A DNA stretch of 63,377 bases, the filler included, from a candidate division WOR-3 bacterium (GTDB taxonomy: Bacteria > SDB-A): NCBI GenBank assembly GCA_016934535.1. It is 5 parts of 5 records of this genome, joined end to end, with 100 filler letters (N's around TTAATTAATTAA, not from the genome) between each part and the next. Parts side by side here need not be neighbours in the genome. Positions count along the whole stretch, not along the records: positions 18,296 to 33,110 come from JAFGSQ010000074.1; 4 more parts are not named here. One strand, given 5' to 3'. Numbering within the stretch: the stretch's first letter is position 1; each line of letters opens with the position of its first letter. The notes beneath the pieces are model-generated. The model did not search any database, was not told the origin of the DNA, and worked only from the letters and a program-made list of their open reading frames with translations. A program made the position numbers and the translations under genes. Below are positions 3,607 through 28,445 of the stretch, in pieces.

Positions 3607-4881
3607 TTACACATCAGGGTCAATCCCGGGAACAGGAGCGTGGGTTTTACGGGAAATCCAATCGAATATTTCTTTTTTCATTTTTGAGTGTTTCCTGTAA
3701 TTTTCGCGCCTTGCACGATCGGAAACAAGCTCCGCGAACGCTCCGCCGTGCTTTTTCAGAAGACCGGTCATCCTGTATATGTAAGCTAAAAAAATGTCAG
3801 GGAAATAATTTTTTGTTCCGTGCAATTCTTTAATCACGTCGGGTTTTGGAAAAAGGCTGTAAAAAATACTCCTGAAATTCTGCCGCAAACCTTCATCTTT
3901 TTTGAATCTGCTGAAAGCGCTGTGCATAAGAACCGGGTCGTCCCTGATCAGGGAGATTGCATCGTATATTATTTTTTTATCGGGCGTGTTCACTGCGGCA
4001 ATTATTCCGGTTTCCGGCGGGAAATTAACACCGAAAATTTCCTCCGCCGTCCTGAAGACCAGGCTTACTGCTCTTTGGGCATGACCTGACAATGTTATTT
4101 GACAAAACTTTTCCCAGTCAATCTTTTCAAGGCATACAATCTCGGCGATGTCCAGAAGATGAATAATTTTTAGACAAAAACCGTGCTGAAAAGAAAGATG
4201 CACGCAAAGAAACAACAGAAGATATTCCAAAGACATTACTTCAATTTCAACTCCGGCGATTTTCTCTTTAACCGCGTTTTTCCAGATATCGTTCAGAGAA
4301 ATAGTGAAAGGATTTTCTTTCGGCAAAATATCCCAATGAAGTTCAATTTTCAAACGCGTTTTGCTATTCTCCAAAAACGAGGTCATGTCGTAGCCCAGGT
4401 GATAATGGTATTTTTCTATCCACGTCTTGTTCCACTTCTCTGGTTTCGCCATTGCTCTTAGGAGCCTGTCGGCTTTTTCCGTGTCGTTCTTCCTGACCAG
4501 AAGGTCTATGTCCTGCATCGGTCTTTTTTTTAAACTCCCGTATACAGATTCAGCGACGTGCAAACCTTTTAAAAGAATGAATCTTATTCCTTCGTTTTTA
4601 AAAACCCTTTGCAGTTCTCCGAGAACAGATGAAAATGCGACTGAATCGCGCCAAAGTGGGGCATACGCGGCGGTAAGTTCCCTAAAAATTTCTCGAGAAA
4701 TTTCACCTTCTCCGGTTTCTTTCAGCAATTCTGAAAGATAACCCGATACACCGTGCACTGCGGATAATCCGACAATGGTCTTCCACGTTCTCTCCGGAAT
4801 TTCAGGGAGGGATTTTCCCTTATTCACCGGCGAAATAATCTGCGAAAGAAGCACGAAGGCAGTCTTTTCGGTTTCATTCAT
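3607..4881 (-). CDS. Nucleotidyltransferase family protein (NTP_transf_5-like)
   Basis: LLKG...Y...RPMQDIDLLV and IELHW motifs; start at MNETEK overlaps the upstream stop. Confidence 0.8.
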   Translation of the reverse strand: MNETEKTAFVLLSQIISPVNKGKSLPEIPERTWKTIVGLSAVHGVSGYLSELLKETGEGEISREIFRELTAAYAPLWRDSVAFSSVLGELQRVFKNEGIRFILLKGLHVAESVYGSLKKRPMQDIDLLVRKNDTEKADRLLRAMAKPEKWNKTWIEKYHYHLGYDMTSFLENSKTRLKIELHWDILPKENPFTISLNDIWKNAVKEKIAGVEIEVMSLEYLLLFLCVHLSFQHGFCLKIIHLLDIAEIVCLEKIDWEKFCQITLSGHAQRAVSLVFRTAEEIFGVNFPPETGIIAAVNTPDKKIIYDAISLIRDDPVLMHSAFSRFKKDEGLRQNFRSIFYSLFPKPDVIKELHGTKNYFPDIFLAYIYRMTGLLKKHGGAFAELVSDRARRENYRKHSKMKKEIFDWISRKTHAPVPGIDPDV

Positions 4882-6676
4882 GCCGTTTTCCCGTTTCGCC
4901 GGTCTGGTATAAATAAGAAGATGCATATATCCCGTTTTTTTCAATCAGTTCTTTATGCAATCCTTCTTCCGAAATCTCTCCGTTTTCCAGAACATACACG
5001 TAATCAGCCTTGACAACATTTGAAAATCTGTGGCTTATCAGAATCACAGCGGCTTCTTTGGCGGCTTCCCGCAGGGCTTCCATGACTGATTCTTCGGACA
5101 AAGCGTCCAGGTAAGCGGTTGGCTCATCAAAAACATAAACAGACGCCTTTTTGAAAAGACATCTCGCTATCGCGATTTTCTGCCATTCTCCCGCGCTCAG
5201 TTCTCTGCCTCCTTCAAACCATCTTCCGAGGCGTGTATCAAAACCTTTTTCCATTTTTTCAATGACAGTTTTGATTCTTGCTTTTTCCGCGATTTCCTTG
5301 ATCGAGCTAAAATCATTTTGTCTGATGATGTCCCCGAGCCAGACATTTTCACCCGCCGTTAGCTGATATTTCTGAAAATCCTGATACACGGCCGAAACCG
5401 ATTCGAACCAGGTTTCGGGCTCGATCTGCCGCAAATCGGTGTCATCGGCGATCACCCTTCCTTCGTCGGGGTCGTAAAACCTGCAAATCAGTTTTGCTAC
5501 CGTTGTTTTGCCAGAGCCGTTCCCTCCGACAATAGCCGTCACGCGACCTCTCTCAAAATCCATGTTCACTCTTTTAAGCGCCTTATCAGGTGATCCGGGA
5601 TACGAAAAAGTTACGTCTTCAATTTTTACACGGTGTCTGCATTCGGCTTTTACGACCTGCGGCAAAATCGAAACGGCAGTTCTGCTTTTCAACCCGAGAA
5701 AATCCGAAAAGTATGACAAAAACAATCCGCTTTCATAAAGACCGACAAACCCGCCAAGAAGACTTCTCAGGCTTCCCTGTCCTCTTTGAAACGCCTGAAA
5801 AAACATAACGAGATTGCCTAAAGACAAAATTCCACCGTAAGTTTCAGAGGTCAGGTAAACCAGGAGTGCTGCGAGAACAGCAGACGAAAGAGTCTGCGCG
5901 GCGAAATCAGAAGCGGCTCTCTTCTTTTTAATAGAAAGAAGCTGACCTCTCAGCATTTTTCTGAAATTTTTAAATCTCTCTTTGAAAAGACCGGCAATGC
6001 CGAAAAGCCTCAGTTCTTTTGCGCTTCCTTCCGAAGTCAGCAAAAAACTGTAATACCAGGTCTCTCTTTCGTATTTCGTTACTTCTTTCTGCCATTTATA
6101 TGTTTTTTTGACAAAAAACATATGGACTGCCGTGCCCGGTACGACTGCGGCAAATAGCACAAATCCGGCAACGCGGCTGAAAGAAAGAATCAACGCAGCT
6201 GTTCCGGCAAAGGTCAGCAGATTCTGAAAAATCGAGAAAATCTGATTCAAGACCACCGTCGGCCTATAGGGAGCTTCTCTTTGTGCTCTGTGAAGCGTGT
6301 CATGGTATTCGGGGTTTTCGTAAAATGATATGTCAATCTCAGAGGATTTGCCGTGCATCGTTTCGTAAATCTTATCCATGATTTTCAGGGAGTGATACTC
6401 GGTGACGACCTCGTTGAGCGAGTCGGCAATAAAGCTTACCGCGTATGCGGTTCCGGCAGCAACAATCAAAACAAGCGATCTCAAGAAAGCACCATCTGGT
6501 TCAGGCGAACTGACTCCCAAAACGACAGAATCGACGAAAAGCTTAACTATGTATAAGAGAGAGACCGGAATCACCGCACGCACGGCGGTAAGAATAATCC
6601 TGGCAAAAAGAAGCTTTTTCGAAGCCTGATAGACTGCAGAGAGAGCAGTCATAAACCGCGAAACACCGTTTTTCAA
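4874..6676 (-). CDS. ABC exporter, fused permease/ATPase
   Basis: N-terminal TM helices; Walker A GGNGSGKT, signature LSAGEWQK, Walker B VFDEPT. Confidence 0.9.
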   Translation of the reverse strand: MKNGVSRFMTALSAVYQASKKLLFARIILTAVRAVIPVSLLYIVKLFVDSVVLGVSSPEPDGAFLRSLVLIVAAGTAYAVSFIADSLNEVVTEYHSLKIMDKIYETMHGKSSEIDISFYENPEYHDTLHRAQREAPYRPTVVLNQIFSIFQNLLTFAGTAALILSFSRVAGFVLFAAVVPGTAVHMFFVKKTYKWQKEVTKYERETWYYSFLLTSEGSAKELRLFGIAGLFKERFKNFRKMLRGQLLSIKKKRAASDFAAQTLSSAVLAALLVYLTSETYGGILSLGNLVMFFQAFQRGQGSLRSLLGGFVGLYESGLFLSYFSDFLGLKSRTAVSILPQVVKAECRHRVKIEDVTFSYPGSPDKALKRVNMDFERGRVTAIVGGNGSGKTTVAKLICRFYDPDEGRVIADDTDLRQIEPETWFESVSAVYQDFQKYQLTAGENVWLGDIIRQNDFSSIKEIAEKARIKTVIEKMEKGFDTRLGRWFEGGRELSAGEWQKIAIARCLFKKASVYVFDEPTAYLDALSEESVMEALREAAKEAAVILISHRFSNVVKADYVYVLENGEISEEGLHKELIEKNGIYASSYLYQTGETGKRHE

Positions 6677-8599: not shown

Positions 8600-9247
8600 T
8601 CAAAGGTTGTGTTTTATCGTTTTTCCCGCTCCGATGAAAACGACATCTTCAGCTATGTTTGTAGTAAGATCGGCAATTCTCTCGAGATCGTGAGTGATGT
8701 TTATAAGCTTCAGCGCTCTTTCAATGGTAGTGGCGTCAGCGAGCATGAAGACTACAAGTTCCCTGATTATGCTGTCTTTTAAATCATCTACGACATCGTC
8801 GTTGGCGCATACTTCCCGCGCAAGGGCGATGTCTTCTTTTATAAACGAAACTATACTTTCCTTGAACATCTTCAGGACATCATCTTTCATTTTTACAAGA
8901 TCGGCATATTCTTTGACTTTCGGTTTTTCGATAAGAAAAAGCGAATGTTGGGCTATATTGACAGCGTGATCGCCCATTCTTTCCAAGTCGCTGTTCATTT
9001 CAAGTATCATCAGAACTTTTCTGAGATCGGATGCCTTAGGTCCGAATTGAGCCACTATGTGAGTGCAAAACTTTTCTATTTCGACTTCTTTTCTGTTCGC
9101 TTCGTTTTCGAGTTTGCCGATGACTTCATCGAGAACCATGCTGTCTCCGCTCATGAGTCCGTTAAGGCTTTTAACAATCATGTCCTCTATCAGAGAAGAG
9201 AATGAAATGATGTTTTCTTTAAGCTGTTCGATTTTTTCATGAAGCAT
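8600..9247 (-). CDS. phoU: Phosphate signalling protein PhoU
   Basis: DLERMGDHAVNIA and DLERIADLTTNIAE repeats; pst context. Confidence 0.93.
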   Translation of the reverse strand: MLHEKIEQLKENIISFSSLIEDMIVKSLNGLMSGDSMVLDEVIGKLENEANRKEVEIEKFCTHIVAQFGPKASDLRKVLMILEMNSDLERMGDHAVNIAQHSLFLIEKPKVKEYADLVKMKDDVLKMFKESIVSFIKEDIALAREVCANDDVVDDLKDSIIRELVVFMLADATTIERALKLINITHDLERIADLTTNIAEDVVFIGAGKTIKHNL

Positions 9248-9256
9248 AATGTCTCC

Positions 9257-10015
9257 TCAACTGAATTTTCCCGTGAGATATTCCTCCGTCTTTTTATCGT
9301 CCGGAGAAGTGAACATTTTTTCTGTTTTTCCGAATTCTACCAATTCTCCGAGAAAGAAAAAAGCCGTTAGGTCCGAGACCCGCGCCGCCTGCGACATGTT
9401 GTGCGTGACGAGCAAAAGCGTGACGTATTCCTTCATCTCGACGATAAGTTCTTCAATTTTAGCCGTCGATTTCGGATCCAATGCTGAAGTAGGTTCGTCA
9501 AGAAGGAGTATCTCGGGCTTCAGTGCGAGAGATCTTGCAATGCAGAGCCTTTGCTGTTGACCGCCCGACAAAAAAGTGCCTCTTTTGTAAAGATTGTCCT
9601 TGACTTCATTCCAGAGAGCCGCTTTTTTAAGTGAGTCCTCAACAATCAGGTCTCTTTCCGTACGGGATAATCTGATTCCGCCGAGTTTGTAACCTGCTAT
9701 TACATTGTCGTATATGTTCATCGTTGGAAACGGATTCGGTTTCTGAAACACCATTCCTATCTTTCTTCGTAAACCAATGGGGTCGAGTGAGTGTATTTCT
9801 TTCCCGTGCAAAAATATCTCGCCCTCGCGTCTGACGTTCGAATCGATTTCGTGCATCCTGTTTATAGCTCTGATGAAAGTTGTCTTTCCGCAGCCTGACG
9901 GCCCCATAATCGCCGTAACCTTTCCCGCTGGAATTTCTATGTTGATTTTATCAAGAGCTTTTGTTTCTCCATAGAAAAGAGAAAAATCAACGCTGTTTAA
10001 AATTTTACTTTCCAT
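9257..10015 (-). CDS. pstB: Phosphate ABC transporter ATPase
   Basis: GPSGCGKT, GMVFQKPNPFPT, LSGGQQQRLCIAR, DEPTSALDP; start at MESKIL. Confidence 0.95.
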   Translation of the reverse strand: MESKILNSVDFSLFYGETKALDKINIEIPAGKVTAIMGPSGCGKTTFIRAINRMHEIDSNVRREGEIFLHGKEIHSLDPIGLRRKIGMVFQKPNPFPTMNIYDNVIAGYKLGGIRLSRTERDLIVEDSLKKAALWNEVKDNLYKRGTFLSGGQQQRLCIARSLALKPEILLLDEPTSALDPKSTAKIEELIVEMKEYVTLLLVTHNMSQAARVSDLTAFFFLGELVEFGKTEKMFTSPDDKKTEEYLTGKFS

Positions 10016-10848
10016 TTTCTGGCTATTCCACTCGCTATGAAATTGATTAATAAAATGAACGCTATCAAAAACAACGAAGCTCCCCAGGCGATTTGCTGCC
10101 AATCCTTATAAGGACTCGTCGCGTATCTGTATATAAGAAGCGGAAGGGCGTTCACAGGTTTGAAAATATTGTAGTTCATGAACTGATTGCCGAAAGCAGT
10201 AAAGAGAAGAGGCGCCGTCTCTCCGGCGATTCTTCCCACCCCCAGGAGAACTCCCGTCAGTATGCCGCTGGCGCTGACAGGCAGAACGACGCGTAAAACG
10301 GTTTTGTAATACGGCACTCCAAGAGACAACGCGGCTTCTTTTATCGAATCAGGAACCATTTTGACCGTCTCTTCCGTGGCTTTTATTACAAGGGGAAGCA
10401 TCATAATGGAAAGGGCGACAGAACCGGCAAAAGCCGAAAAAAGTCCTTTCAGGGGTCTGATTATCCATATATACGCTACTATTCCCATAACTATAGAAGG
10501 TACGCCCTGAAGCACCTCCACCCATGTTCTCACCCAGAAAGATAATTTAGACTTCCTGCATTCTGCGAGAAAAACTCCACACAGAATTCCGAGAGGGATC
10601 GACATAACGCACGTTAATGCGATTAATATTATCGTTCCGACGATCGCGTTTGAAATGCCTCCGCCTTCCTGCCCAACGGGTTTGGGAAGAGAGAAAAGAA
10701 AATTCATGTCTATTGCGGCTATCCCCTTTTTTGCGACGAAGAACAAAATCAGCACGAGCGGAATGACTGTAGCCGACGAAAGAGTTATGACCGCCATTTT
10801 AAAAAGAAAATTTTCGGTCTTTCTTAACTCAATCGGTTTGCTTTTCAT
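9997..10848 (-). CDS. pstA: Phosphate ABC transporter permease
   Basis: GGGISNAIVGT, EAALSLG and RIAGETAPLLFT motifs. Confidence 0.93.
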   Translation of the reverse strand: MKSKPIELRKTENFLFKMAVITLSSATVIPLVLILFFVAKKGIAAIDMNFLFSLPKPVGQEGGGISNAIVGTIILIALTCVMSIPLGILCGVFLAECRKSKLSFWVRTWVEVLQGVPSIVMGIVAYIWIIRPLKGLFSAFAGSVALSIMMLPLVIKATEETVKMVPDSIKEAALSLGVPYYKTVLRVVLPVSASGILTGVLLGVGRIAGETAPLLFTAFGNQFMNYNIFKPVNALPLLIYRYATSPYKDWQQIAWGASLFLIAFILLINFIASGIARKWKVKF

Positions 10849-10870
10849 TTCAATTCTATTTTCAAAGGCA

Positions 10871-11788
10871 TCAGGCAGATCCCGATTTGTCGAATTTCTT
10901 TATTATCAATCTTCCTGAAAAGTTTATTACAGTTGTCACCAAGATTAGAAGAAGACCCGTTTGTATAAGGGCGGAAAGATGAATACCGCTCGATTCGTTG
11001 AATTCAAGAGCTATTATACTCGACATCGTGTTTCCAGGTGAAAACAACGTTTTGTGAAGTTCGGCAAGAGAAAAAAGCGTTTTCGGAAGTGCGTTTAGGT
11101 TTCCGATAACCATCGTCACTGCCATCGTCTCTCCGAGAGCCCTGCCAAGTGCCAAAAGAAGACCTGCCGTCACTCCCGATCTCGCGCAGGGAAATATGAC
11201 GTTTTTTATAACTTCAAAACGCGTCGCGCCGAGAGAATAAGCCGCTTCTTTAAGCTCGGTCGGGACTAGATGTAAAGACTCCCTGATCATTGAAGCGGAA
11301 TATGGTATTATCATTATTGAGAGAACCAGAGAAGAAGTCATAATCCCGACGCCGTACGGCGGTATTCCGGTTTTTGCTTCAAATGATCTGGCAATGGGTA
11401 CTATTACGCTGAATCCCCAGAAACCGTATATCACTGATGGTATTCCGGATAAAAGTTCCATTGTGCTTTTAAGAAAAGCTGGGAGAAAGCCGGATTTAAA
11501 ATATTCACCGAGCAGAAGTGCCGTAGAAAAAGCGAACGGTATCGAGATCAAAAGAGAGAGAAACGCGGTGGAAACGGTTCCGAACAAAAAAGGCAGGGCT
11601 CCAAGTTCTATCTTTTCCCCTCTCCACACCGATTGAGGGTCCCATCGAGTACCGGTAAAAAAGGAAAATCCCAATGCTTTTATCGAAGGCAGCGCTCTAA
11701 TGAACAGCGTTAAAAAAATACCCGCTATCAGTAAAATGATTACAGTCCCTGAAACATAAAGGATCGCCTTGAACACCCTGTCGTTCAT
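10871..11788 (-). CDS. pstC: Phosphate ABC transporter permease
   Basis: ELLSGIPSVIYGFWG, EAAYSLGATR and RALGETMAVTMVIGN motifs. Confidence 0.93.
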   Translation of the reverse strand: MNDRVFKAILYVSGTVIILLIAGIFLTLFIRALPSIKALGFSFFTGTRWDPQSVWRGEKIELGALPFLFGTVSTAFLSLLISIPFAFSTALLLGEYFKSGFLPAFLKSTMELLSGIPSVIYGFWGFSVIVPIARSFEAKTGIPPYGVGIMTSSLVLSIMIIPYSASMIRESLHLVPTELKEAAYSLGATRFEVIKNVIFPCARSGVTAGLLLALGRALGETMAVTMVIGNLNALPKTLFSLAELHKTLFSPGNTMSSIIALEFNESSGIHLSALIQTGLLLILVTTVINFSGRLIIKKFDKSGSA

Positions 11789-11810
11789 TATAAAAACCGA
11801 ATACAAATAA

Positions 11811-12890
11811 TCAGATGAGGGCTTCTCCGCCGAAGTTGACGGATTTTATTAAACTTTCTATTTGCTCAATCGCTTTTTCCGGTATCGGTGCGTAGTGCAA
11901 TTCTTCGCAATAAACCTGTCCTTCATGAGTCATCCACCATATAAGATTGACAAGTTCTTTCGCTCTTTTTTGATCTCTTCCCCCGTAATTCTGATCCTTG
12001 TAAAGTATTATCCATGTGAATCCGCTTATCGGGTAACCTTCCGGAGCGTCCGTGTCGGTAAGGGAAACGATCATGTTTGCAGGCAGGTCAATTTCAGCCG
12101 ATGCGCTAACAGAGCTTATTGAAGGGACGATGAAAGTGCCGCTTTTATTCTGTATTGAAGCGACCGACATTGAATTGCTGAGGGCGTATATCAATTCGGT
12201 GTAGCCTACCGCTCCGGGAGTAGAGCTTATCTGTCCAGCCACGCCGGGATTTCCGTTGGCTCCTATACCTGTCGGCCAATCGAGAGATTTTCCGGTTCCG
12301 ACTTCCTGCGCCCAGTTCCTGCTGACTTTAGTGAGATAATCGCTGAAAATATATGTCGTGCCGCTTCCGTCCGACCTGTGAACAACGATTATTTCCATTT
12401 CGGGAAGGGCTGTTCCCGCGTTTATTGCTGATATTTTCGGATCGTTCCATTTCGTTATTGTACCGAGAAATATTTCTGCTATGACATCAGAAGTCAGGTT
12501 TAAAGCAGGATTTCCGGGCAAATTGTAGGAAACAACCACCGCTCCCAGGCAAACAGGGACGTGAATAATATCGGCGCCGGCTTTTTGAAGCTCGTCTTCC
12601 TTCATGGGGGCGTCAGTTCCTCCGAAATCCACTGTCTTTTCTATGAGCTGATTTATTCCTCCTCCGGATCCGATTGCGTTATAATTGATTTTAGGTCCTT
12701 TGATGTTACTGTATTCATCGAACATTTTAGAATACAGCGGGAAAGGAAAAGTCGCTCCCGCTCCCAAAAAATCCATACTGACAAGTTCTACCTGCGAAGA
12801 ATCCTGAAGCTGTTGTACGGGTTTTTGACTGCATCCCGTCAAAACAACTAAAACCGCAGACACAGCGATAAATAAAATTCTAGTTTTCAT
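11811..12890 (-). CDS. pstS: Phosphate-binding lipoprotein
   Basis: GAGATFP, GSGGG and HRSDGSGTT motifs; LTGC lipobox. Confidence 0.95.
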   Translation of the reverse strand: MKTRILFIAVSAVLVVLTGCSQKPVQQLQDSSQVELVSMDFLGAGATFPFPLYSKMFDEYSNIKGPKINYNAIGSGGGINQLIEKTVDFGGTDAPMKEDELQKAGADIIHVPVCLGAVVVSYNLPGNPALNLTSDVIAEIFLGTITKWNDPKISAINAGTALPEMEIIVVHRSDGSGTTYIFSDYLTKVSRNWAQEVGTGKSLDWPTGIGANGNPGVAGQISSTPGAVGYTELIYALSNSMSVASIQNKSGTFIVPSISSVSASAEIDLPANMIVSLTDTDAPEGYPISGFTWIILYKDQNYGGRDQKRAKELVNLIWWMTHEGQVYCEELHYAPIPEKAIEQIESLIKSVNFGGEALI

Positions 12891-12914
12891 TCTCTTTCCT
12901 CCTGTATAAATATC

Positions 12915-12937
12915 AAGGGGGACCCGATGTCCCCCTT
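12915..12937. other. Intergenic stem-loop between the porin gene and pstS
   Basis: AAGGGGGAC-ccgat-GTCCCCCTT perfect 9-bp stem; no clear U tract on the sense strand. Confidence 0.55.
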
Positions 12938-12959
12938 ATGTTTTATTGCACAATTATAA

Positions 12960-14018
12960 TTAAGACGACACTTTTGTGTCAAACACCCATTTTACCTGAA
13001 ACAGAAACATGTTTGTCGAAGTGTAATCTTCCATTTCATAACTTTCCATCATGTATTCAGCTCCAAGATAAACACAGTTTTTACTGTCTTTGAACGCTGT
13101 CCAGTTAAAACCGCCGAAAATCCTGTTCAGCCCGTCGTCGTCCGTGTCTGTGTCCGGATCCCACTGGTCGTATCTCGCGTAAATGTCTATTTCGTTTCCC
13201 GTCATGGGTTTGAGGTGAAGGACAGGATAAACGGCAAATCCCATCGATTTGACAGCATCATCGGCGCCGGCCGCTGTGAAACTTCTTCCGTAATAAACTG
13301 CGCCTAATCCGAAATATTCGTGATTGAAATTGATCGCCGCGTGGTAAATGTTGTTTGAGGCATATTCGTCGTCCGCATCAGGCGTACCCGGATTGTCATA
13401 AACGTAGGATCCGCCGAAATTCAATATCGGTAAAGGTTTTATGTTTGCGGCAACGGCGAACATCATTTTTTTATTGAAATTCGCGCTTCCACAGGTGTTT
13501 TTGTATCCTTCTCCGTTAACTGCCGTAGCGGCCCAGTCAAAATACTCAAGGTTTCCAATGGCTGCTGTTCCATAATCCGCAGATGAATGCAGTTTCTGCA
13601 TATCGAAAAAACGCGAAGAGATGGTCGGGCAATTCGCCTTTGCAACGCCTTCTTCGCCGAATACATTGCCGATGAGACCGAGTTGAAACTTGTGATATTG
13701 AACGAGATTGGAAAGCTGGATGTAACCTGTTTTCAATCTTACCGAAGCACCGTCTTTATAATCTTTGCTGCTGAGAAAATCGACAGTCAGTTTTCCTGAA
13801 AGATAATCGTTGTATTTCGCAGACAGTATTACGTATCCCCTGTCAATGCTGAAATAAGTTTGCGTTATCTCGGCATCGCCTGTGTCGTCGGGCGCTTCCT
13901 GAACGAGAGTGAATCTGTTTCTGACTTCCATACCGAAATTCAAGTCGAAGCCTTGCATGGCCGAGAATAATCCGGCTGAAAGAACCGCCGCGATTAAAAC
14001 TGTTTTCACTGTGTTCAT
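12960..14018 (-). CDS. Outer-membrane porin-like beta-barrel, probably phosphate-related
   Basis: AAAGGAGG RBS, signal peptide, alternating aromatic strands, YARYDQWDP motif; lies between phoR and pstS. Confidence 0.7.
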   Translation of the reverse strand: MNTVKTVLIAAVLSAGLFSAMQGFDLNFGMEVRNRFTLVQEAPDDTGDAEITQTYFSIDRGYVILSAKYNDYLSGKLTVDFLSSKDYKDGASVRLKTGYIQLSNLVQYHKFQLGLIGNVFGEEGVAKANCPTISSRFFDMQKLHSSADYGTAAIGNLEYFDWAATAVNGEGYKNTCGSANFNKKMMFAVAANIKPLPILNFGGSYVYDNPGTPDADDEYASNNIYHAAINFNHEYFGLGAVYYGRSFTAAGADDAVKSMGFAVYPVLHLKPMTGNEIDIYARYDQWDPDTDTDDDGLNRIFGGFNWTAFKDSKNCVYLGAEYMMESYEMEDYTSTNMFLFQVKWVFDTKVSS

Positions 14019-14079
14019 AAATCCTCCTTTTAGATTGCGGTTTGCAAGAATCGCTTTTTGACAGCACAAAAACACGCAC

Positions 14080-14133
14080 ATCATAAAATAGGTGGGTTAC
14101 AATTAAATAAACGGTTGGTTAATTTTTTGTTAA
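14080..14133 (-). promoter_or_regulatory. Pho-box-like tandem repeats and -10 element
   Basis: Minus strand TTAACA-N5-TTAACC-N5-TTTATT-N5-GTAACC (11-bp period), then TATGAT about 10 nt downstream. Confidence 0.65.
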
Positions 14134-15884
14134 TTCTTATATTCCGGGAAACTAACGGTAAAAACCGTTCCGACGTCAATTTCGCTGTCAAACGAAACAT
14201 AAGCGCTGTGTCTGTCGGCAATGCTTTTGACTATAGACAGGCCCAGCCCTGTCCCTCCCGTTTCTCTCGACCTTGATTTATTGACTGTATAAAATCTCGA
14301 AAAAATGTTTTTTCTGTGTTTTTCCGGAATTCCTATACCGGTATCTTTTACTGATAAAAATATCATGCCTTCTCTTTTCGAAAGAGAAACAAGGACTTCC
14401 CCGTTAACTTTGTTGTATTTTATTGAATTGTCGACAAGATTAACAAGCAGTTGTCCCAAAAGAAAATCGTCTCCGTAGACGAAAAAATCGGTTTCAGAGA
14501 AACTTTTGTTTAAGGATATGTTTTTTTCCTTGGCCTTTTGTTCGAAAACAATCATTGTTTCATCGGCTATGATCTTTATGTCGGTTTTTTTGAAATCATA
14601 AAGAAATCCGGGGTCGTCTGATTGCGCAAGAAGAAGAAGATCTTTCACGAGATTGTTGAGCCGATTGAGATTTTTATTGATTATGCAGATAAATTTACTT
14701 TTATTTTCCTCCGATTCTGATTCCAAAATCTCGGCAAAACCCATTACAATCGAAAGCGGTGTTTTCAGTTCGTGGGCAGTGTTGATTATGAATCGGTTTT
14801 GCCTGTGTTCAGCCGCTTTTTGTTCGGTGATGTCCTGAATTGAAACAATCGAATATTTGGATTTATCAATTTCTTGATATTTTACGGACACAAGGCAGAC
14901 AAGGTTAAAAATTTCAACTTCCCCGCTTGCTTCTCCGGCAGTCTCGGCTTTTTTTAGCATTTTCAGCAATTCCTCTGATTGGAATATTTCTCTGTAATAC
15001 TTGCCTTCATAATCGCCTGTGTAGTTTTTCAGGAATGTTGCTTTAACGGTTTTGTTTGTAAAAACAATTCTTCCTGTGCCGTCAATAATCAGAACACATG
15101 AGGGAAGTCCGTCTGCTATAGAATTAAGACTCGAAAAAAGCTCCGAAGTCTTAACATTTGGTTTTTCTTCATCTTGCATCGCAGTAAAAAAATATGAAAA
15201 TTTTTCACCGAGAAGCATTCTTTCTTTTCCGTATAAAAGTATTTCCGTGGAATTTTTACGAGCCGCTTCTGCCGAAATTCTGATTGAGTCTATTGTTTTT
15301 ATAATTGTACCCGTACATAAAAACAATGCCGCCAAAGAAGAAAAAACAATCAATCCGAACGCTGCAAAATACAGCTTATATGCCGCTTTTGGATATATGA
15401 TGTCCGGATCTCCTTCAACAAGTATCACTCCTTTAAGATTTTTTTCATAATAAAAAGGCAGCGCCAGAGACGCAGAAGAAGCTGTTTGTGAATAACCGTA
15501 ATATCTGCTGTTTTCATGAGAATCAGTTAAAACTCTAAGCGCTTGATAAAAAGCGCTTTTCAATGGGATTTTAGCGTTGTTTACTGTATTGAGCTTTGAA
15601 TCAGCCAGCACATTCCCCTGGTCGTCGTAAAGGATATATCTGAGTTTTTGTCCGCCAAAAATATCTTTAAAAACACTGTCGATGTTTTCTTTTCCGTATT
15701 CTTCAAGGGTCTTCTCGGAGATCAACCGCGCGTTTACACAAGCCGTGTATAAAACGTTAATGCTTTCATTTCGTTCAATAACGCGTCCCGTTTTTACAAT
15801 CATAACAACCGAAACAACGGATGAGAAAAATACTATCAGCGCAGGCAATATAGAGAAAGCGAAAATCCTTTTAAAAAGCTTCAA
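14130..15884 (-). CDS. phoR: Sensor histidine kinase PhoR
   Basis: Two TM segments, PAS-like region, HELKTPL H-box, NLVDNSIKY, DTGIGI, GGTGLGLSIV. Confidence 0.88.
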   Translation of the reverse strand: MKLFKRIFAFSILPALIVFFSSVVSVVMIVKTGRVIERNESINVLYTACVNARLISEKTLEEYGKENIDSVFKDIFGGQKLRYILYDDQGNVLADSKLNTVNNAKIPLKSAFYQALRVLTDSHENSRYYGYSQTASSASLALPFYYEKNLKGVILVEGDPDIIYPKAAYKLYFAAFGLIVFSSLAALFLCTGTIIKTIDSIRISAEAARKNSTEILLYGKERMLLGEKFSYFFTAMQDEEKPNVKTSELFSSLNSIADGLPSCVLIIDGTGRIVFTNKTVKATFLKNYTGDYEGKYYREIFQSEELLKMLKKAETAGEASGEVEIFNLVCLVSVKYQEIDKSKYSIVSIQDITEQKAAEHRQNRFIINTAHELKTPLSIVMGFAEILESESEENKSKFICIINKNLNRLNNLVKDLLLLAQSDDPGFLYDFKKTDIKIIADETMIVFEQKAKEKNISLNKSFSETDFFVYGDDFLLGQLLVNLVDNSIKYNKVNGEVLVSLSKREGMIFLSVKDTGIGIPEKHRKNIFSRFYTVNKSRSRETGGTGLGLSIVKSIADRHSAYVSFDSEIDVGTVFTVSFPEYKN

Positions 15885-16572
15885 ATTTATACCCGACCCC
15901 CCTTACGGCTTTTATGAATTTTCCGTATTTTCCAATCTTTTCTCTTATTTTAACCACGTGAACGTCTATGGTTCTGTCAATCACAATTTTTTCAGAACCC
16001 CACAGCTTTTCCAGGAGAACTTCCCTGCTGAAAACTCTGTCGGGTTTAGACACAAGGATTTCGAGAATTTTAAATTCAGTGAAAGTCAGATCAGCGGTTT
16101 TACCACAGACTTTAATCGAGAATTTATCCCTGTCTATTACCAGTTCTTTGTATTTTACCAGATTCGTTTCCTCTTTATTCTTTTCCTGCGGACAAGATGT
16201 TCTTCTCAAAACAGCTTTGACTCTCGCGATAAGTTCTTTGACGCTGAAGGGTTTTACGATGTAATCGTCCGCCCCGAGTTCGAGACCCAGAACCCTGTCT
16301 GTTTCTGAATCCTTTGCCGTCAGCATAATAATGGGGATGTTCTTTTTTTCAGGAGATGCCTTGATTATTTTGCATATTTCTATTCCGGTATATCCGGGCA
16401 GCATGAGATCGAGAATGATTAGATCTGCGTTGTTTTCCGATATGTGTCTGATGAAAGCAGCCCCGTCTGAAAAAGATTCTGTCAAGAAATTCTCTTTGTG
16501 AAGGCTGTATGATAACAATTCGACTATATCAGGTTCATCGTCGACGATCGCTATCTTTTTTTTGACAGACAC
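15871..16572 (-). CDS. phoB: OmpR/PhoB-family response regulator
   Basis: IVDDE, LDLMLP, GADDYIVKPF, RTIDVHV and VRGVGY motifs; GTG start after GGAGG. Confidence 0.85.
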   Translation of the reverse strand: MSVKKKIAIVDDEPDIVELLSYSLHKENFLTESFSDGAAFIRHISENNADLIILDLMLPGYTGIEICKIIKASPEKKNIPIIMLTAKDSETDRVLGLELGADDYIVKPFSVKELIARVKAVLRRTSCPQEKNKEETNLVKYKELVIDRDKFSIKVCGKTADLTFTEFKILEILVSKPDRVFSREVLLEKLWGSEKIVIDRTIDVHVVKIREKIGKYGKFIKAVRGVGYKFEAF

Positions 16573-16662
16573 TCCGCCTCCTGTATAATCCATTTATGAT
16601 TGCTTCGTTTGAGTATACATTATATATAATGCATTGATAAACATAATTTTTAGGAGGTCCCG

Positions 16663-23100: not shown

Positions 23101-23655
23101 ATGGAAAATGCGGACAGGAGAGTGTACTCTGTAGATCATGCCGGAGCTCTGGACACAAACTTACGGAAACTTGTTCATAATCCCAAAAGAATTCTCTGGC
23201 CGTACCTGGGGACAGGTATGACCGCGCTTGACCTGGGCTGCGGACCTGGATTTTTCACCTTGGAAATGGCAAAGATAGTGGGAAAAACAGGAAAAGTCAT
23301 TGCCGCCGATATTCAGGAAGGAATGCTCGAAAAACTCAGGGAAAAAATATCCGGGTCGGAATTCGAAGGAATGATTTGCCCATACAAATGTCCGGATGAC
23401 AGGATAGGTCTGAACGAAAAGGTCGATTTCGTCCTGATGTTCTGGATGCTCCATGAATCTGCAGATCCGGCAGGACTGATAAAAGAGGTAAAATCAATTC
23501 TGAACAAGTATGGGAGAATTCTGCTCTGTGAGCCTTTTTTTCACGTGTCAAAAAAGGATTTCAGAAAATCTCTGGACATGTTCAAGAACAGCGGATTTGT
23601 ATTTGTCGACGAACCAAAAGTATTCCTATGCAGGTCTGCGCTTCTAGAAGCATAG
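23101..23655 (+). CDS. Class I SAM-dependent methyltransferase
   Basis: LDLGCGPG motif I; AGGAG RBS before ATG 23101. Confidence 0.88.
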   Translation: MENADRRVYSVDHAGALDTNLRKLVHNPKRILWPYLGTGMTALDLGCGPGFFTLEMAKIVGKTGKVIAADIQEGMLEKLREKISGSEFEGMICPYKCPDDRIGLNEKVDFVLMFWMLHESADPAGLIKEVKSILNKYGRILLCEPFFHVSKKDFRKSLDMFKNSGFVFVDEPKVFLCRSALLEA

Positions 23656-23738
23656 ATCATCGTTTGACTCCCCCGCTCCTCTGTTTTAAAATACTGTTTT
23701 TAGCTCTGGATTTCGCTGTCAAACAGGAGGACCGGAAT

Positions 23739-24479
23739 ATGGAAGCACTGATGAAAGCTTACAACCGAGACCTGAAATCCTTGGATGAATTCTACTCTTT
23801 CCTCAACAAAGAAATCGAATACGAACCCGGTAAATCCACTTCGCTGGGAATAATCTACTGGGGCAGAACTGAACATATGCCTGATCTGAAAAAAGCCTGC
23901 GACAGGATAGCCTCAAACGGAACAAAGGACTTCTGCGCACTGCACGAAGCAGTCCGAACTCCTTCGAAGATGAGAAAGTTCGCAATCCTGAACAAACTCA
24001 ACGAAAAGATTCTCAAAATCCTCTCTCATGACTTGAACATGTGGATGCCCCAGAGAACTGAGTTGTCAGCTATTCCACTGCTCAGAGAAAACAAGGAGGA
24101 TCTTAAAAAGTTTTGCGACTACGGAATTGAGGACCAGATCTCGTTTCTGTCAGGCTATTTTAAAAAAACCAAGAGAAAGGATCTGGCAAAAGATTTGAAG
24201 ATAAAGCTGGACCAGATGAACGAATACATAAAAATCTGCGATTTTTTCAGAATGGGAGGAAAATTAGAAGCAATAAGACCCGTCATATTTTATAAAATGG
24301 GATACGATACTCATCAGAAATGGGCCAAGGCCAAACCGGCAATGGTTATAAAAAGATTTGATGAGTATATGAAAAAAAATAAAATGACAGGAAAATATTT
24401 AACGCCTTTTACAAAAGAAATAGTAAACACGATCGAATGGGCTAAAGTGCATCACGGATTGTTTAAAGTTGAATATTGA
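23739..24479 (+). CDS. Hypothetical protein (possible DUF4332-like C-terminus)
   Basis: GGAGG RBS; CDFFRMGG...FYKMGYDT segment resembles an HhH-like DUF4332 region. Confidence 0.55.
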   Translation: MEALMKAYNRDLKSLDEFYSFLNKEIEYEPGKSTSLGIIYWGRTEHMPDLKKACDRIASNGTKDFCALHEAVRTPSKMRKFAILNKLNEKILKILSHDLNMWMPQRTELSAIPLLRENKEDLKKFCDYGIEDQISFLSGYFKKTKRKDLAKDLKIKLDQMNEYIKICDFFRMGGKLEAIRPVIFYKMGYDTHQKWAKAKPAMVIKRFDEYMKKNKMTGKYLTPFTKEIVNTIEWAKVHHGLFKVEY

Positions 24480-24599: not shown

Positions 24600-26402
24600 C
24601 TAATGTTTGTGAGATATCTCCTTTTCGCAGGATCCGTCGATTGTACAGCGCTGCCAGTAACTCGTGTGCAGAAGTTTGTGTGATAACTCGCCCAGGGGTT
24701 CGCCGAGAAATTTCGCGTATATGCCTTTCGGGCTCATCACTGCGGGATTTTCGTGAGACTGTCTTTTTGCCATGCTCCGATCTTCGGCGTAAAGTCCTTC
24801 TCCTCTTCGCGCTTTTTTCGCCATTGTACTCCCCAGAGGTTGTCCTCCGCCTCCAACACACCCGCCTGGACAGGCCATTATCTCGATGAATGCATATTCG
24901 CTTTTACCGGTGTTCATTAACTGTTCGCGGATTTTTTCAAGAAGCTGACGCGCATTGCCGAGTCCATGTGCCACTGCGACCTTTATGTTCAATTCTCCGA
25001 AATCCCTCGTAGGAATTTTGAGGGACGCTTCTTTTATTCCCTCCTGACCTCTGACAGGTTTTATATCGAGGTCTTTCATGTTTTCCCCGGTAAGAAGATA
25101 CCACGCCGATCTAATGGCCGCTTCCATAACCCCTCCGGTGGCGCCGAAAATCGTCCCAGCACCTGTATACTGACCCATCAAATCATCAGCTTCGGCAGGT
25201 TTAATATTTTTAAAATCTATACCGGCCTCCCGTATCATTTTAACGAATTCTCTTGTAGTCAGGACGTAGTCGACGTCTTGAAATCCTGAGTCGCGCATTT
25301 CAGGTCTTTTAGCCTCAAATTTTTTTGCCGTGCATGGCATGATCGAAACGCTTACTATTTTTGAAGGGTCAATTCCGTACTCTTTTGCAAAATAAGTTTT
25401 GGAAAGCGCTCCGAACATCTGCTGGGGAGATTTGCACGTAGATATGTGTTGAGCATAATCAGGAAAAAAAGTCTCCATGAATTTTATCCAACCCGGAGAA
25501 CAGGAGGTTATCAGAGGAAGAGAGCCGCCTTCTTTTATTCTTTTTACGAGTTCAGATCCTTCCTCGAGAATAGTCAGATCGGCTGTGAAATTGGTATCGA
25601 ATACATAATCGAAACCGATTTTCTTTAAAGCGGCATACATCTTTCCCGGTGTTGCTTGTCCCGGCTCCATACCGAATTCTTCGGCGATTGAAACTCTAAC
25701 CGACGGAGCCTCCTGTACTATTACTGTTTTGTCCGGATCGAATATTGAATTCCAAACCTCCTCGATTTCAATTGATTCTCTTATCGCTCCTGTGGGGCAG
25801 ACAGCAGCGCACTGGCCGCAATTTACACATGTACTCTCCCCCAATCCCTTTTTGAAAAACGTGTTGACGTTGACTCCAAATCCTCTTTCCACAAAATGTA
25901 TCGCGCTCACCGTTTGAATTTCGTTGCAGACAGTAACGCATCTGCCGCATTGTATACATTTTTTTGGATCTCTTATTACCGAAACGCTTGATTCGTCCAA
26001 GTCCTCATTGGACTGGATTTTTGCGTATTTATTCGTATCAGCACCTAAAAGTTCTGATAGAGTTTGAAGTTCGCATTTGCCGTTGGCCGAACAGGAAGGA
26101 CAGGAAACGTCGTGATCTGACAAAATGAGTTCGAGCAGTGATTTTCTCATGCCTCTCAACTTCTTGGAGTTCGTCGTAATATTCATTCCATCTTCAGCGA
26201 GTGTACAGCAGGCTCTTTTCGGGACTTGTTGACCTTCAATTTCGACAACACACAAACCGCACGATCCCGAAGGTTTCAAATCTTCGTGATAACAAAGAGT
26301 CGGCACATAGATGCCGGCATTTTTCGCCGTTTCGAGTATAGTTTTTCCTTTTTCAGATATTATTTCTTTGTTGTCTATTATCAGTTTTATCAGTTCAGAC
26401 AT
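24600..26402 (-). CDS. hydA: [FeFe]-hydrogenase catalytic subunit (group A)
   Basis: H-cluster motifs ITSCSPGW, MPCTAKKFE, EIMACPGGCVGGGGQP; N-terminal 2Fe-2S, His-ligated 4Fe-4S and 2x4Fe-4S. Confidence 0.95.
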   Translation of the reverse strand: MSELIKLIIDNKEIISEKGKTILETAKNAGIYVPTLCYHEDLKPSGSCGLCVVEIEGQQVPKRACCTLAEDGMNITTNSKKLRGMRKSLLELILSDHDVSCPSCSANGKCELQTLSELLGADTNKYAKIQSNEDLDESSVSVIRDPKKCIQCGRCVTVCNEIQTVSAIHFVERGFGVNVNTFFKKGLGESTCVNCGQCAAVCPTGAIRESIEIEEVWNSIFDPDKTVIVQEAPSVRVSIAEEFGMEPGQATPGKMYAALKKIGFDYVFDTNFTADLTILEEGSELVKRIKEGGSLPLITSCSPGWIKFMETFFPDYAQHISTCKSPQQMFGALSKTYFAKEYGIDPSKIVSVSIMPCTAKKFEAKRPEMRDSGFQDVDYVLTTREFVKMIREAGIDFKNIKPAEADDLMGQYTGAGTIFGATGGVMEAAIRSAWYLLTGENMKDLDIKPVRGQEGIKEASLKIPTRDFGELNIKVAVAHGLGNARQLLEKIREQLMNTGKSEYAFIEIMACPGGCVGGGGQPLGSTMAKKARRGEGLYAEDRSMAKRQSHENPAVMSPKGIYAKFLGEPLGELSHKLLHTSYWQRCTIDGSCEKEISHKH

Positions 26403-28155: not shown

Positions 28156-28190
28156 AGACTTCTCCGATACATATTTTGATATTAATAATT

Positions 28191-28228
28191 CAAAAACGCG
28201 TACGTCATTAATGAACAGGCGCGGTTTT
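28191..28228 (-). terminator. Imperfect terminator-like hairpin in the hydrogenase leader
   Basis: Minus strand AAAACCGCGcctGTTCATTAATGACgtaCGCGTTTTTG. Confidence 0.45.
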
Positions 28229-28272
28229 AATCCGTCCGGGTTATGTCGAAATCACTGTCTATGAGCTGAGGA

Positions 28273-28308
28273 CTATGGGGGTTCTTTACAGATTCTTGCT
28301 TTGCTCAT
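28273..28308 (-). CDS. 11-aa leader ORF MSKARICKEPP
   Basis: ATG 6 nt after the AAAAGGAG RBS that forms the 3' strand of the riboswitch P1. Confidence 0.45.
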   Translation of the reverse strand: MSKARICKEPP

Positions 28309-28312
28309 TTTT

Positions 28313-28412
28313 TTCTCCTTTTCAAGTATGGAAGGCAGAACCGTTTCCAATCCCACCCTGTCGGTTTGCAGGCTTGGCAACCCTTGCTTTAGCACTGAAA
28401 ACTCGGAGTTTC
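28313..28412 (-). ncRNA. Moco RNA motif riboswitch, P3-less (tungsten-cofactor-associated) variant
   Basis: ACTCCGAG-P2(GTTTtCAG..CTAA..CTGcAAAC)-CGACAG-P4(GGTGGGATTG GAAA CGGTTCTGCC)-P5(TTC-CATACTT-GAA)-AAGGAG follows the Moco motif layout; no P3 stem. Confidence 0.82.
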
Positions 28413-28416
28413 GCGA

Positions 28417-28445
28417 ACTTTAACATCGATAATATTCATTGTCAA
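28417..28445 (-). promoter_or_regulatory. sigma70-type promoter of the riboswitch/hydrogenase transcript
   Basis: TTGACA-N17-TAAAGT with an extended -10 TG, just upstream of the aptamer. Confidence 0.7.

Follow-up and report, generated by a model that had tools for sequence, protein, structure and literature searches.

Why should an RNA from a family of cofactor sensors stand directly ahead of an operon whose enzyme works without that cofactor? The question is raised by a locus in a 63,377-nt stretch of DNA from a candidate division WOR-3 bacterium (GenBank assembly GCA_016934535.1), called the window below; positions in it count along the whole stretch, and items numbered with L, G or C are comparison loci, genomes and contigs. 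Here an RNA of the molybdenum cofactor (Moco) motif precedes hydB and hydA, the genes of a predicted [FeFe] hydrogenase. To our knowledge, the genes described so far as members of a Moco riboswitch regulon all serve to make, import or use the pterin cofactor, and a hydrogenase does none of these. An earlier note on this DNA had drawn attention to the pairing, and we followed it up computationally. The answer that we favour, and hold to be probable though by a distance not assured, is that a working Moco riboswitch without the P3 hairpin (P3-less) was recruited to control hydBA, with OFF logic exerted through a leader open reading frame (ORF), so that electrons shift between H2 and formate.

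Identity of the RNA upstream of hydBA

The whole window was scanned against Rfam with cmscan at the gathering threshold, and three matches were obtained: two tRNAs and RF01055, the Moco RNA motif. The latter covers the full model (positions 1-135) and scores 64.1 bits against a gathering cut-off of 36 (E = 4.1e-13), so that the covariance-model check proposed in the earlier note ended in a match. When aligned to RF01055, the window RNA has P1, P2, P4 with its GAAA cap, and P5, and a gap takes the place of the P3 hairpin; this is the structure that the note had described. The span it had marked, 28313-28445, comprises the aptamer core and the promoter; a small leader ORF (mini-ORF) and a spacer of about 117 nt, both lying between aptamer and hydB, were overlooked there.

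We also built a covariance model of our own (R1) from 83 P3-less Moco RNAs, namely the window RNA and 82 sampled ones. On this model, made solely of P3-less RNAs, the window aptamer scores 87.8 bits, and it fits the 83-sequence alignment including the covariations in P5 and the receptor. The conserved Moco core is present as CUCCGAG, AGGG, the GGAAAC tetraloop hairpin, CCUYCC and GGAAAGGAG, together with P1, P2, P4 and P5, and P2 carries a tetraloop-receptor-like CUAAAG...CCAAGC. The minimum-free-energy (MFE) fold of 28411-28305 recovers the same four helices. We conclude that the RNA is a member of the P3-less ('Tuco-type') subclass of the Moco RNA motif, with cofactor binding predicted from its sequence.

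RNAs of RF01055 are further expected upstream of genes for molybdenum/tungsten (Mo/W) transport, cofactor synthesis or cofactor-using enzymes. In the window hydB and hydA come next, and then a convergent gene that ends the operon. Domain and Pfam scans agree with the earlier note on this layout, and none of the 59 window ORFs (9 + 50) scanned with Pfam is a Mo/W transporter, cofactor-synthesis or pterin-enzyme gene. Location is a contextual and not a structural property of the family, and the departure from it is the point of interest here.

The hydrogenase

The HydB protein consists of a NuoE-like part (residues 4-148) and a NuoF-like part (residues 190-572), without a C-terminal ferredoxin domain. 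At the SLBB site where bifurcating enzymes have GGPSG it reads GGASG, a difference of one residue in a comparison confined to this marker position. HydA passes the NCBIfam model NF040763, 'NADH-dependent [FeFe] hydrogenase, group A6', with 819.8 bits against a cut-off of 765, and its H-cluster motifs are TSCSPGW, MPCTAKKFE and ACPGGCVGGGGQP. By these features hydBA is predicted to encode an NADH-dependent, ferredoxin-independent [FeFe] hydrogenase of the Syntrophus aciditrophicus HydAB type. The first H-cluster motif (residues ~298-304, region 25490-25510 of the window) differs from the textbook TSCCPxW; we discarded it as an oddity, since the same Ser variant occurs in the solved, active HydA1 of A. 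woodii (PDB 7q4v).

Conservation of the arrangement in the closest relative

The closest HydB relative in a large protein collection is 74% identical and the next best is 49% identical. L282, a locus on an 87-kb contig of a public metagenome-assembled genome (MAG) that we refer to as G001, is a member of this 74%-identity HydB cluster, and its HydA is 89% identical to that of the window. The L282 aptamer (5802-5918) lies directly ahead of hydB and scores 89.5 bits on the P3-less model and 67.5 bits on RF01055. The order of elements is that of the window: promoter-like site, aptamer, mini-ORF, a 116-nt spacer, hydB, hydA, and then convergent DUF4332 and methyltransferase genes. According to the earlier note, its proposal would be refuted if relatives had fdh, aor or moa placed between the RNA and the hydrogenase genes; L282 has no such gene there.

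The two loci are collinear at 82% DNA identity from the first paired base of the aptamer through hydA and two more genes. Differences within the aptamer fall mostly in distal P2 or preserve pairing. Because the aptamer is far more alike (82.5% identity) than the spacer and the third codon positions of the two genes (56-62%; Table 1), we conclude from this comparison of sequences that it is under purifying selection.

Other members of the same HydB cluster occur in Logan assemblies (P0003, P0123, P0124) and may be preceded by similar leaders. By its title, the public record with L282 comes from an uncultured Desulfuromonadaceae bacterium, but the order and phylum to which it is assigned in the collection comprise only five species genomes; the taxonomy in the title may be unreliable.

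Table 1. Features of the hydBA locus in the window and their identity to the corresponding parts of L282.
Feature	Position	Strand	Identity to L282	Evidence and remarks
Promoter-like site	28417..28445	-		-35 TTGACA 28445-28440, 17-nt spacer, TG-extended -10 TAAAGT 28422-28417; 10/12 consensus matches
Moco/W-cofactor aptamer, P3-less class	28299..28420	-	82.5% (80/97 aligned positions)	RF01055, own model R1, 83-RNA alignment, MFE fold, pair support in 10 hydrogenase-linked RNAs
P1, 5' strand CUCC	28408-28405	-		Alignment
P1, 3' strand GGAG	28318-28315	-		Alignment
Shine-Dalgarno AAGGAG of mini-ORF	28315..28320	-		Its GGAG is the P1 3' strand; 6 nt from GGAG to ATG (28308)
Leader mini-ORF, 11 codons + stop	28273..28308	-	75% (27/36)	MSKARICKEPP, then stop; directly behind aptamer
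Spacer, 117 nt (116 nt in L282)	28156..28272	-	56.3%	No predicted promoter or conserved hairpin/terminator
hydB, NuoE-NuoF fusion flavoprotein subunit, 586 aa	26395..28155	-	57.6% (third codon positions)	NuoE-like 2Fe-2S, NuoF flavin mononucleotide (FMN) domain, SLBB, NuoF 4Fe-4S region; Shine-Dalgarno GGAG 28165-28162
hydA, [FeFe] hydrogenase catalytic subunit, 600 aa	24600..26402	-	62.1% (third codon positions)	2Fe-2S, NuoG-type 4Fe-4S, two 4Fe-4S, H-cluster domain, small-subunit domain; 8-nt overlap with hydB
Convergent DUF4332 gene, ends operon	23628..24479	+	84.5% (protein)	Syntenic in L282

Promoter, leader ORF and spacer

The earlier note had also reported a clean promoter ahead of the RNA, and a sigma-70-like site is indeed found there, from which transcription is predicted to start at about 28411-28409, 1-3 nt ahead of P1. 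The motif alone is weak evidence, as the region holds four promoter-like sites against 2.5 +/- 1.7 in shuffled sequence. The call is strengthened because L282 has a matching site (TTGACA, 18 nt, TATCTT with TG) at the same 8-nt distance from CTCCGAG.

Directly behind the aptamer lies the mini-ORF, and a closed P1 would hide its Shine-Dalgarno sequence because the GGAG of the latter is the 3' strand of P1. The L282 counterpart, MCKVKVCIDPP followed by a stop, is obtained when reading starts at the second ATG, 6 nt from GGAG as in the window. Frame, length and ending are kept, both mini-ORFs closing on Glu/Asp-Pro-Pro-stop. Many of the 82 sampled P3-less RNAs have a Shine-Dalgarno sequence with an ATG immediately behind AAAGGAG.

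The spacer offers little that could connect the mini-ORF to hydB. Its sole short conserved box is GACAGT (28259-28254), 13 nt past the mini-ORF stop. Consensus scans, which miss non-sigma-70 promoters, predicted no same-strand promoter between aptamer and hydB in the window or in L282, and terminator scanners found no intrinsic terminator there in either. A hairpin at about 28230-28190 of the window was considered as a conserved terminator and rejected: it is weak (-9 kcal/mol, z -1.5; -5.9 kcal/mol in another fold) and missing from L282. The whole leader folds no better than shuffled sequence (z 0.12), and in its MFE structure the hydB Shine-Dalgarno sequence pairs with the P1 5' strand, to which we gave no weight, since any GGAG pairs with CUCC.

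P3-less Moco RNAs ahead of other genes and of [NiFe] hydrogenases

No H-cluster or NuoF gene lies within 2 kb of any of the 82 P3-less Moco RNAs that we sampled. The first ORFs after them (n = 79) encode 15 TupA-like and one ModA-like binding proteins, seven MoaA, five aldehyde:ferredoxin oxidoreductases (AOR), three MoeA, three NuoG-type FdhA, four ABC permeases, four outer-membrane receptors, two MOSC proteins, two sulfite-oxidase-like proteins, one MobB and 11 others; 21 are without a Pfam family. At L098, L142 and L158 (Syntrophomonadaceae/Bacillota MAGs) the RNA stands before NuoG-type FdhA, and the ORFs end at 355-363 codons inside the molybdopterin domain, probably at a selenocysteine TGA; L158 has two aptamers about 290 nt apart.

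A link to hydrogenase genes was found in another group. We surveyed 151 genomes of the order around a Desulfoscipio genome, an order unrelated to that of the window, and compared [NiFe] small-subunit coordinates with 150 of the 654 RF01055 matches. In at least eight of these genomes a same-strand P3-less-type aptamer (58-99 bits) leads a [NiFe] small/large-subunit operon, with the small subunit (Oxidored_q6 and NiFe_hyd_SSU_C) and a 482-aa large subunit encoded about 200-800 nt downstream; one such locus, scanned further, also encodes HycI, HypA and a NUBPL-type ATPase. No Moco RNA was found at the 33 top-scoring [NiFe] small-subunit loci of the 151 genomes (0/33), and the positives belong to a lower-scoring hydrogenase subgroup. 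In six of the eight leaders the aptamer is followed by a strong hairpin and U run (-11.8 to -19.1 kcal/mol), the usual transcriptional platform.

Across ten hydrogenase-linked RNAs, 94.4% of cells pair and 13 of 27 pairs change on both sides, which none of 500 shuffles reaches, in an alignment that was fitted to the model and favours pairing. We conclude that the link between this riboswitch and hydrogenases arose at least twice, in different hydrogenase classes and phyla. Named records of the order include Desulfoscipio and Desulfotruncus, and a cultured member may carry the [NiFe]-linked RNA. Two of the [NiFe] leaders (L343:609-721 and L344:4433-4538) show a second, weak P3-less match (28.7 and 30 bits) about 190-300 nt past the strong aptamer, either a degenerate tandem copy or chance.

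Tungsten and molybdenum genes in G001

The inventory of tungsten enzymes was made on the 2.2-Mb assembly of G001, the closest relative, as a proxy. Its phylum comprises five species genomes in the collection, and among these the fused HydB type occurs in G001 only. This genome has exactly two Moco RNAs: the P3-less one ahead of hydBA and a P3-containing one ahead of wtpB-wtpC-wtpA. WtpA scores 260.9 bits against a cut-off of 242.75, and WtpB and WtpC fall just below their cut-offs. The P3-containing RNA precedes the same importer in G003 and G004 as well.

In the wtp leader of G001 (L286:5905-6107, minus strand, contig C7) a 19-codon mini-ORF runs through a hairpin and U run (-10 kcal/mol) just ahead of wtpB. 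The layout is the same in G004, where a 26-codon ORF, read by hand, overlaps the wtpB start and the hairpin has -12 kcal/mol. In G003 the RNA and wtpB/C are present, and the slice that was folded contains no hairpin (L303 and L304 are further wtp leader loci). These leaders look like riboswitch-gated, translation-coupled attenuation, in which translation would melt the terminator. They provide a precedent within the phylum: in G001 and G004, too, a mini-ORF is placed behind the aptamer, there overlapping a hairpin and U run.

G001 encodes a selenocysteine-containing FdhA (TIGR01591, 891.6 bits against a cut-off of 666) with ShyB/ShyC-like NAD(P)H-type subunits. The gene sits among moaC, moaA, moeA, focA, mobA and fdhD; hydF and the gene of a radical-SAM maturase (hydG or hydE) adjoin. 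There is also one AOR, with a polyferredoxin. No riboswitch precedes the formate dehydrogenase (FDH) or AOR genes. HydA is the sole strong match among H-cluster proteins (a second match has 118.8 bits), and a [NiFe] large subunit was not found in the assembly. By its gene content G001 looks like a tungsten user with two NAD(P)H outlets, formate, for which the cofactor is needed, and H2, for which it is not, and with the cofactor-sensing RNA placed on the H2 outlet. The idea that HydB might serve as a shared NADH module of formate dehydrogenase is not needed, since FdhA has NAD(P)H-type subunits of its own; the variant in the earlier note in which the hydrogenase partners a tungsten enzyme is dispensable to the same extent.

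Two arrangements in this genome may be recorded in addition. On contig C6 the hydF and radical-SAM/BATS (hydG or hydE) genes, with an aspartase/fumarase-like gene ahead (L290:9760-13822), lie divergently beside the operon of the selenocysteine FdhA with moaC-moaA-moeA and focA-mobA-fdhD (L290:460-9239); hydrogenase maturation and formate-dehydrogenase/cofactor genes thus adjoin, and hydBA itself is elsewhere. On contig C8 (L292:3456-9116) a 672-aa NuoF-like protein with a C-terminal ferredoxin domain is encoded beside a 1210-aa fusion protein in which a 2Fe-2S domain is joined to a GltD-like NAD(P)H module, NuoG-type clusters and a weakly scoring molybdopterin-like domain (76 bits). The pair may form a complex of the Bfu/Nfn type that has neither a hydrogenase nor an FDH catalytic site.

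A proposed mechanism and its alternatives

Transcription from the promoter-like site would reach the aptamer almost at once. With ample cofactor, P1 would close and hide the Shine-Dalgarno sequence, and the leader ORF would not be translated. The untranslated leader would then suffer a transcription stop or mRNA decay before hydB, Rho being the most likely route. Otherwise a ribosome lingering on the slow Pro-Pro-stop end could shield the RNA just past the stop, where the GACAGT box lies. Rho or decay is favoured as the link because no hairpin is conserved in the hydBA leaders. The net effect would be that with cofactor present the hydrogenase goes down and NAD(P)H is re-oxidised via the cofactor-dependent formate dehydrogenase; with cofactor scarce, the hydrogenase would go up and electrons would leave as H2. 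An OFF switch is likely, with its polarity and its coupling to hydBA inferred. The earlier note had suggested that cofactor supply shifts electron disposal between tungsten enzymes and H2. This suggestion, a hypothesis as yet, fits the inventory of G001 (a WtpA-type importer, an AOR, and selenocysteine FdhA with an NAD(P)H module) and the recurrence at [NiFe] loci.

Several points weigh against this reading. The link is rare: among 160 more distant HydB loci (80 from genomes and 80 from metagenomes, relatives 32-51% identical) that were searched with the P3-less covariance model at a reach of 3-4 kb, none has a Moco RNA near hydB, and none of the 79 first ORFs after the sampled P3-less RNAs encodes a hydrogenase part. 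The survey for Moco RNAs upstream of [FeFe]-hydrogenase genes that the earlier note had asked for was positive at L282 and negative at these 160 loci. (A crude regular expression for the Moco core gave four matches in the first 80 HydB loci, all without the conserved features, and was replaced by the covariance model.) The [FeFe] arrangement is present in two genomes only, and these are close (82% DNA identity), so that the conservation tests have little depth. The evidence from conservation of the mini-ORF is modest: 27 of 36 nt are the same, the two peptides differ at six of their 11 residues, and a 36-nt frame can stay open by chance. No structure kept in both window and L282 links hydB to the leader ORF; the spacer folds with a consensus energy of -0.5 kcal/mol. 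The involvement of Rho is pure inference, and the spacer is not consistently C-rich. Finally, the tungsten cofactor is assigned to the P3-less class as its ligand by a correlation, reported in the main text of Regulski et al. 2008 (PMC2408646), and not by a measured specificity.

The riboswitch could also work with the opposite polarity, the cofactor turning hydBA on. The hydrogenase would then act together with cofactor enzymes, for example by passing electrons from H2 to NADH and on to CO2 through formate dehydrogenase, so that the two enzymes interconvert formate and H2, and translation of the leader ORF would have to inhibit downstream expression. Enzymes of the HydAB type are described as reversible in vitro in Losey et al. 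2020 (PMC7311640), the FDH locus of G001 adjoins hydF and the hydG/hydE maturase gene, which hints at joint use, and many P3-less RNAs precede cofactor-requiring enzymes (five AOR and three FdhA among the 79 first ORFs), where ON control makes sense; no structure fixes the polarity at hydB. The sole conserved platform element, however, is the Shine-Dalgarno sequence inside P1, a design that was shown to give an OFF switch in E. coli moaA (main text of PMC2408646). The wtp importer leaders of the same phylum, for which OFF control is expected, use an analogous mini-ORF layout, and there is no conserved anti-Shine-Dalgarno or anti-terminator element that would invert the signal. We regard ON control as unlikely and retain OFF control through the leader ORF.

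It is more doubtful still that the aptamer is a relic or bystander, which once controlled a Mo/W gene now lost, has the mini-ORF as its stump, and lies in the 5' untranslated region with little effect on hydBA. In its favour, the point at which homology between window and L282 starts is exactly the aptamer, which could reflect an insertion or junction, the mini-ORF may be what is left of the start of a vanished gene, and the link is missing at all 160 more distant HydB loci and all 79 sampled first ORFs. Against it, both aptamers score in full (64.1 and 67.5 bits), identity drops from 82.5% in the aptamer to 56% in the adjacent spacer, promoter position and the length and ending of the mini-ORF are kept, and a different hydrogenase class has independently acquired the same class of RNA in at least eight genomes. 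Since the aptamer is under selection and the layout is kept in L282, a deleted target gene, the fallback of the earlier note, is therefore disfavoured.

Least credible of all is that control by the riboswitch ends with the leader peptide, or with a short leader transcript, that has a role of its own, and that hydBA is served by a spacer promoter that went unrecognised. In favour are the length of the spacer (117 nt), a perfect TTGACA hexamer that L282 has within the shared GACAGT box, and the escape of non-sigma-70 promoters from consensus scans. Against it, neither genome has a -10 element 16-18 nt after the hexamer, the spacer is otherwise unconserved, and an 11-residue peptide with six residues changed is an unlikely effector.

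Other observations

In two metatranscriptome contig sets of the same study the locus matched no record, apart from one 35-nt piece at 90-95% likeness, too little to bear on its expression. An ABC system with a PBP_like_2 protein in the window was considered as a tungstate importer and rejected, the protein being PstS with PhoU. Positions 8600-16593 contain a complete pstS-pstC-pstA-pstB-phoU set beside a histidine kinase and an OmpR-type regulator (PhoR/PhoB-like), and the PBP_like_2 protein is easily mistaken for TupA. Downstream of the methyltransferase gene, the intergenic segment 22678-22993 holds sequence of about 50-130 nt that matches several places in L282 (for example 4661-4817 and 11204-11332; 79-94% identity) on both sides of the hyd operon, a small dispersed repeat.

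Implications

Syntrophic and fermenting anaerobes choose H2 or formate as an outlet for NADH, and trace tungsten, molybdenum and selenium have been studied as factors in this choice in digesters and sediments. A cis-acting RNA ahead of hydrogenase genes would give this old question a concrete, testable mechanism. The riboswitch would report cofactor status to a competing pathway, which would be metabolic cross-regulation and not feedback. The Pro-Pro-stop mini-ORF suggests, in addition, how a riboswitch that acts on translation might be made to control a gene further away.

A broader proposal can be put forward only tentatively, and we would sooner doubt it than rely on it: that sensing of the W/Mo cofactor by riboswitches is a general, so far undescribed way in which anaerobes choose how to dispose of electrons. 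The P3-less class would have been recruited for it at least twice, for an NADH-dependent [FeFe] hydrogenase in a candidate phylum of five species and for [NiFe] hydrogenases in an unrelated order. In either group, H2 metabolism would be set by whether the cofactor supply suffices for formate dehydrogenase and other tungsten enzymes. In the window this would operate via a new platform, in which the aptamer gates an 11-codon ORF and a ribosome held at Pro-Pro-stop protects the transcript from premature termination.

Comparison with known systems

In full-text literature we found no published Moco-class riboswitch ahead of hydrogenase genes; the supplement of Regulski et al. 2008 lies outside that coverage and could list one. 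Papers with both Moco RNA and hydrogenase terms place the RNA before moaA/moaC, molybdopterin clusters, aor genes or a molybdate transporter, and the word 'hydrogenase' occurs zero times in the main text of Regulski et al. (PMC2408646), the supplement being outside this count.

The ligand of the Moco family was deduced from genetics, according to the main text of PMC2408646, which reports that 58 of 176 Moco RNAs are without P3 and that 17 of 19 organisms carrying P3-less RNAs have tungsten-cofactor genes. The general background of the earlier note, in which Moco RNAs precede genes for Mo/W uptake, synthesis and enzymes and P3-less variants are linked to tungsten, agrees with that text. The E. 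coli moaA riboswitch described there shares with the window RNA the family, the P1/P2/P4/P5 core, the GAAA tetraloop and a receptor-like P2; its ribosome-binding site lies in the 3' strand of P1, and it was shown to be an OFF switch for moaA. The window RNA, in contrast, is without P3, its operon has no Mo/W transporter, biosynthesis gene or pterin enzyme, and its Shine-Dalgarno sequence and ATG serve an 11-codon leader ORF instead of the regulated gene.

A second comparison is with the P3-less Moco RNAs ahead of tup/wtp, moaA, moeA, AOR and NAD-type FdhA genes (main text of PMC2408646, and our sample) and of aorA1-3 in Pelobacter carbinolicus (PMC3543383). They form the same structural class, and G001 is a tungsten user by gene content; the target here is a hydrogenase, unlike all 79 of the sampled first ORFs.

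On the side of the enzyme, the nearest system is HydAB of Syntrophus aciditrophicus. According to the sections of Losey et al. 2020 (PMC7311640) that treat it, this enzyme is non-bifurcating and makes H2 from NADH without ferredoxin, and in its HydB a gamma-like part (residues 15-152) is fused to a beta-like part (residues 177-585). Shared are the two-gene enzyme, the NuoE-NuoF fusion HydB without a C-terminal ferredoxin domain, and the lack of the GGPSG marker (GGASG), the likeness being one of architecture and family model. Those sections report no riboswitch for the characterised enzymes.

The [NiFe]-linked Moco RNAs of the unrelated order share with the window the P3-less class, a hydrogenase without pterin cofactor as target, and the implied logic of cofactor against H2. 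They differ in hydrogenase class and phylum, and in the platform, which in six of eight leaders is a hairpin with U run and not a Pro-Pro-stop mini-ORF.

For that mini-ORF there are two parallels: in tnaC of E. coli, stalling at Pro-stop blocks Rho, and the mgtA leader combines a Mg2+ riboswitch with the proline-codon ORF mgtL. The likeness, an analogy only, lies in a short proline-ending leader ORF between sensor and structural genes, where ribosome occupancy could decide read-through. In the window the sensor would instead gate initiation of the leader ORF, and a rut site, stalling and Rho dependence are hypothetical. The RNA itself is of a known family, and its hydrogenase target and putative mini-ORF platform are new variations within it.

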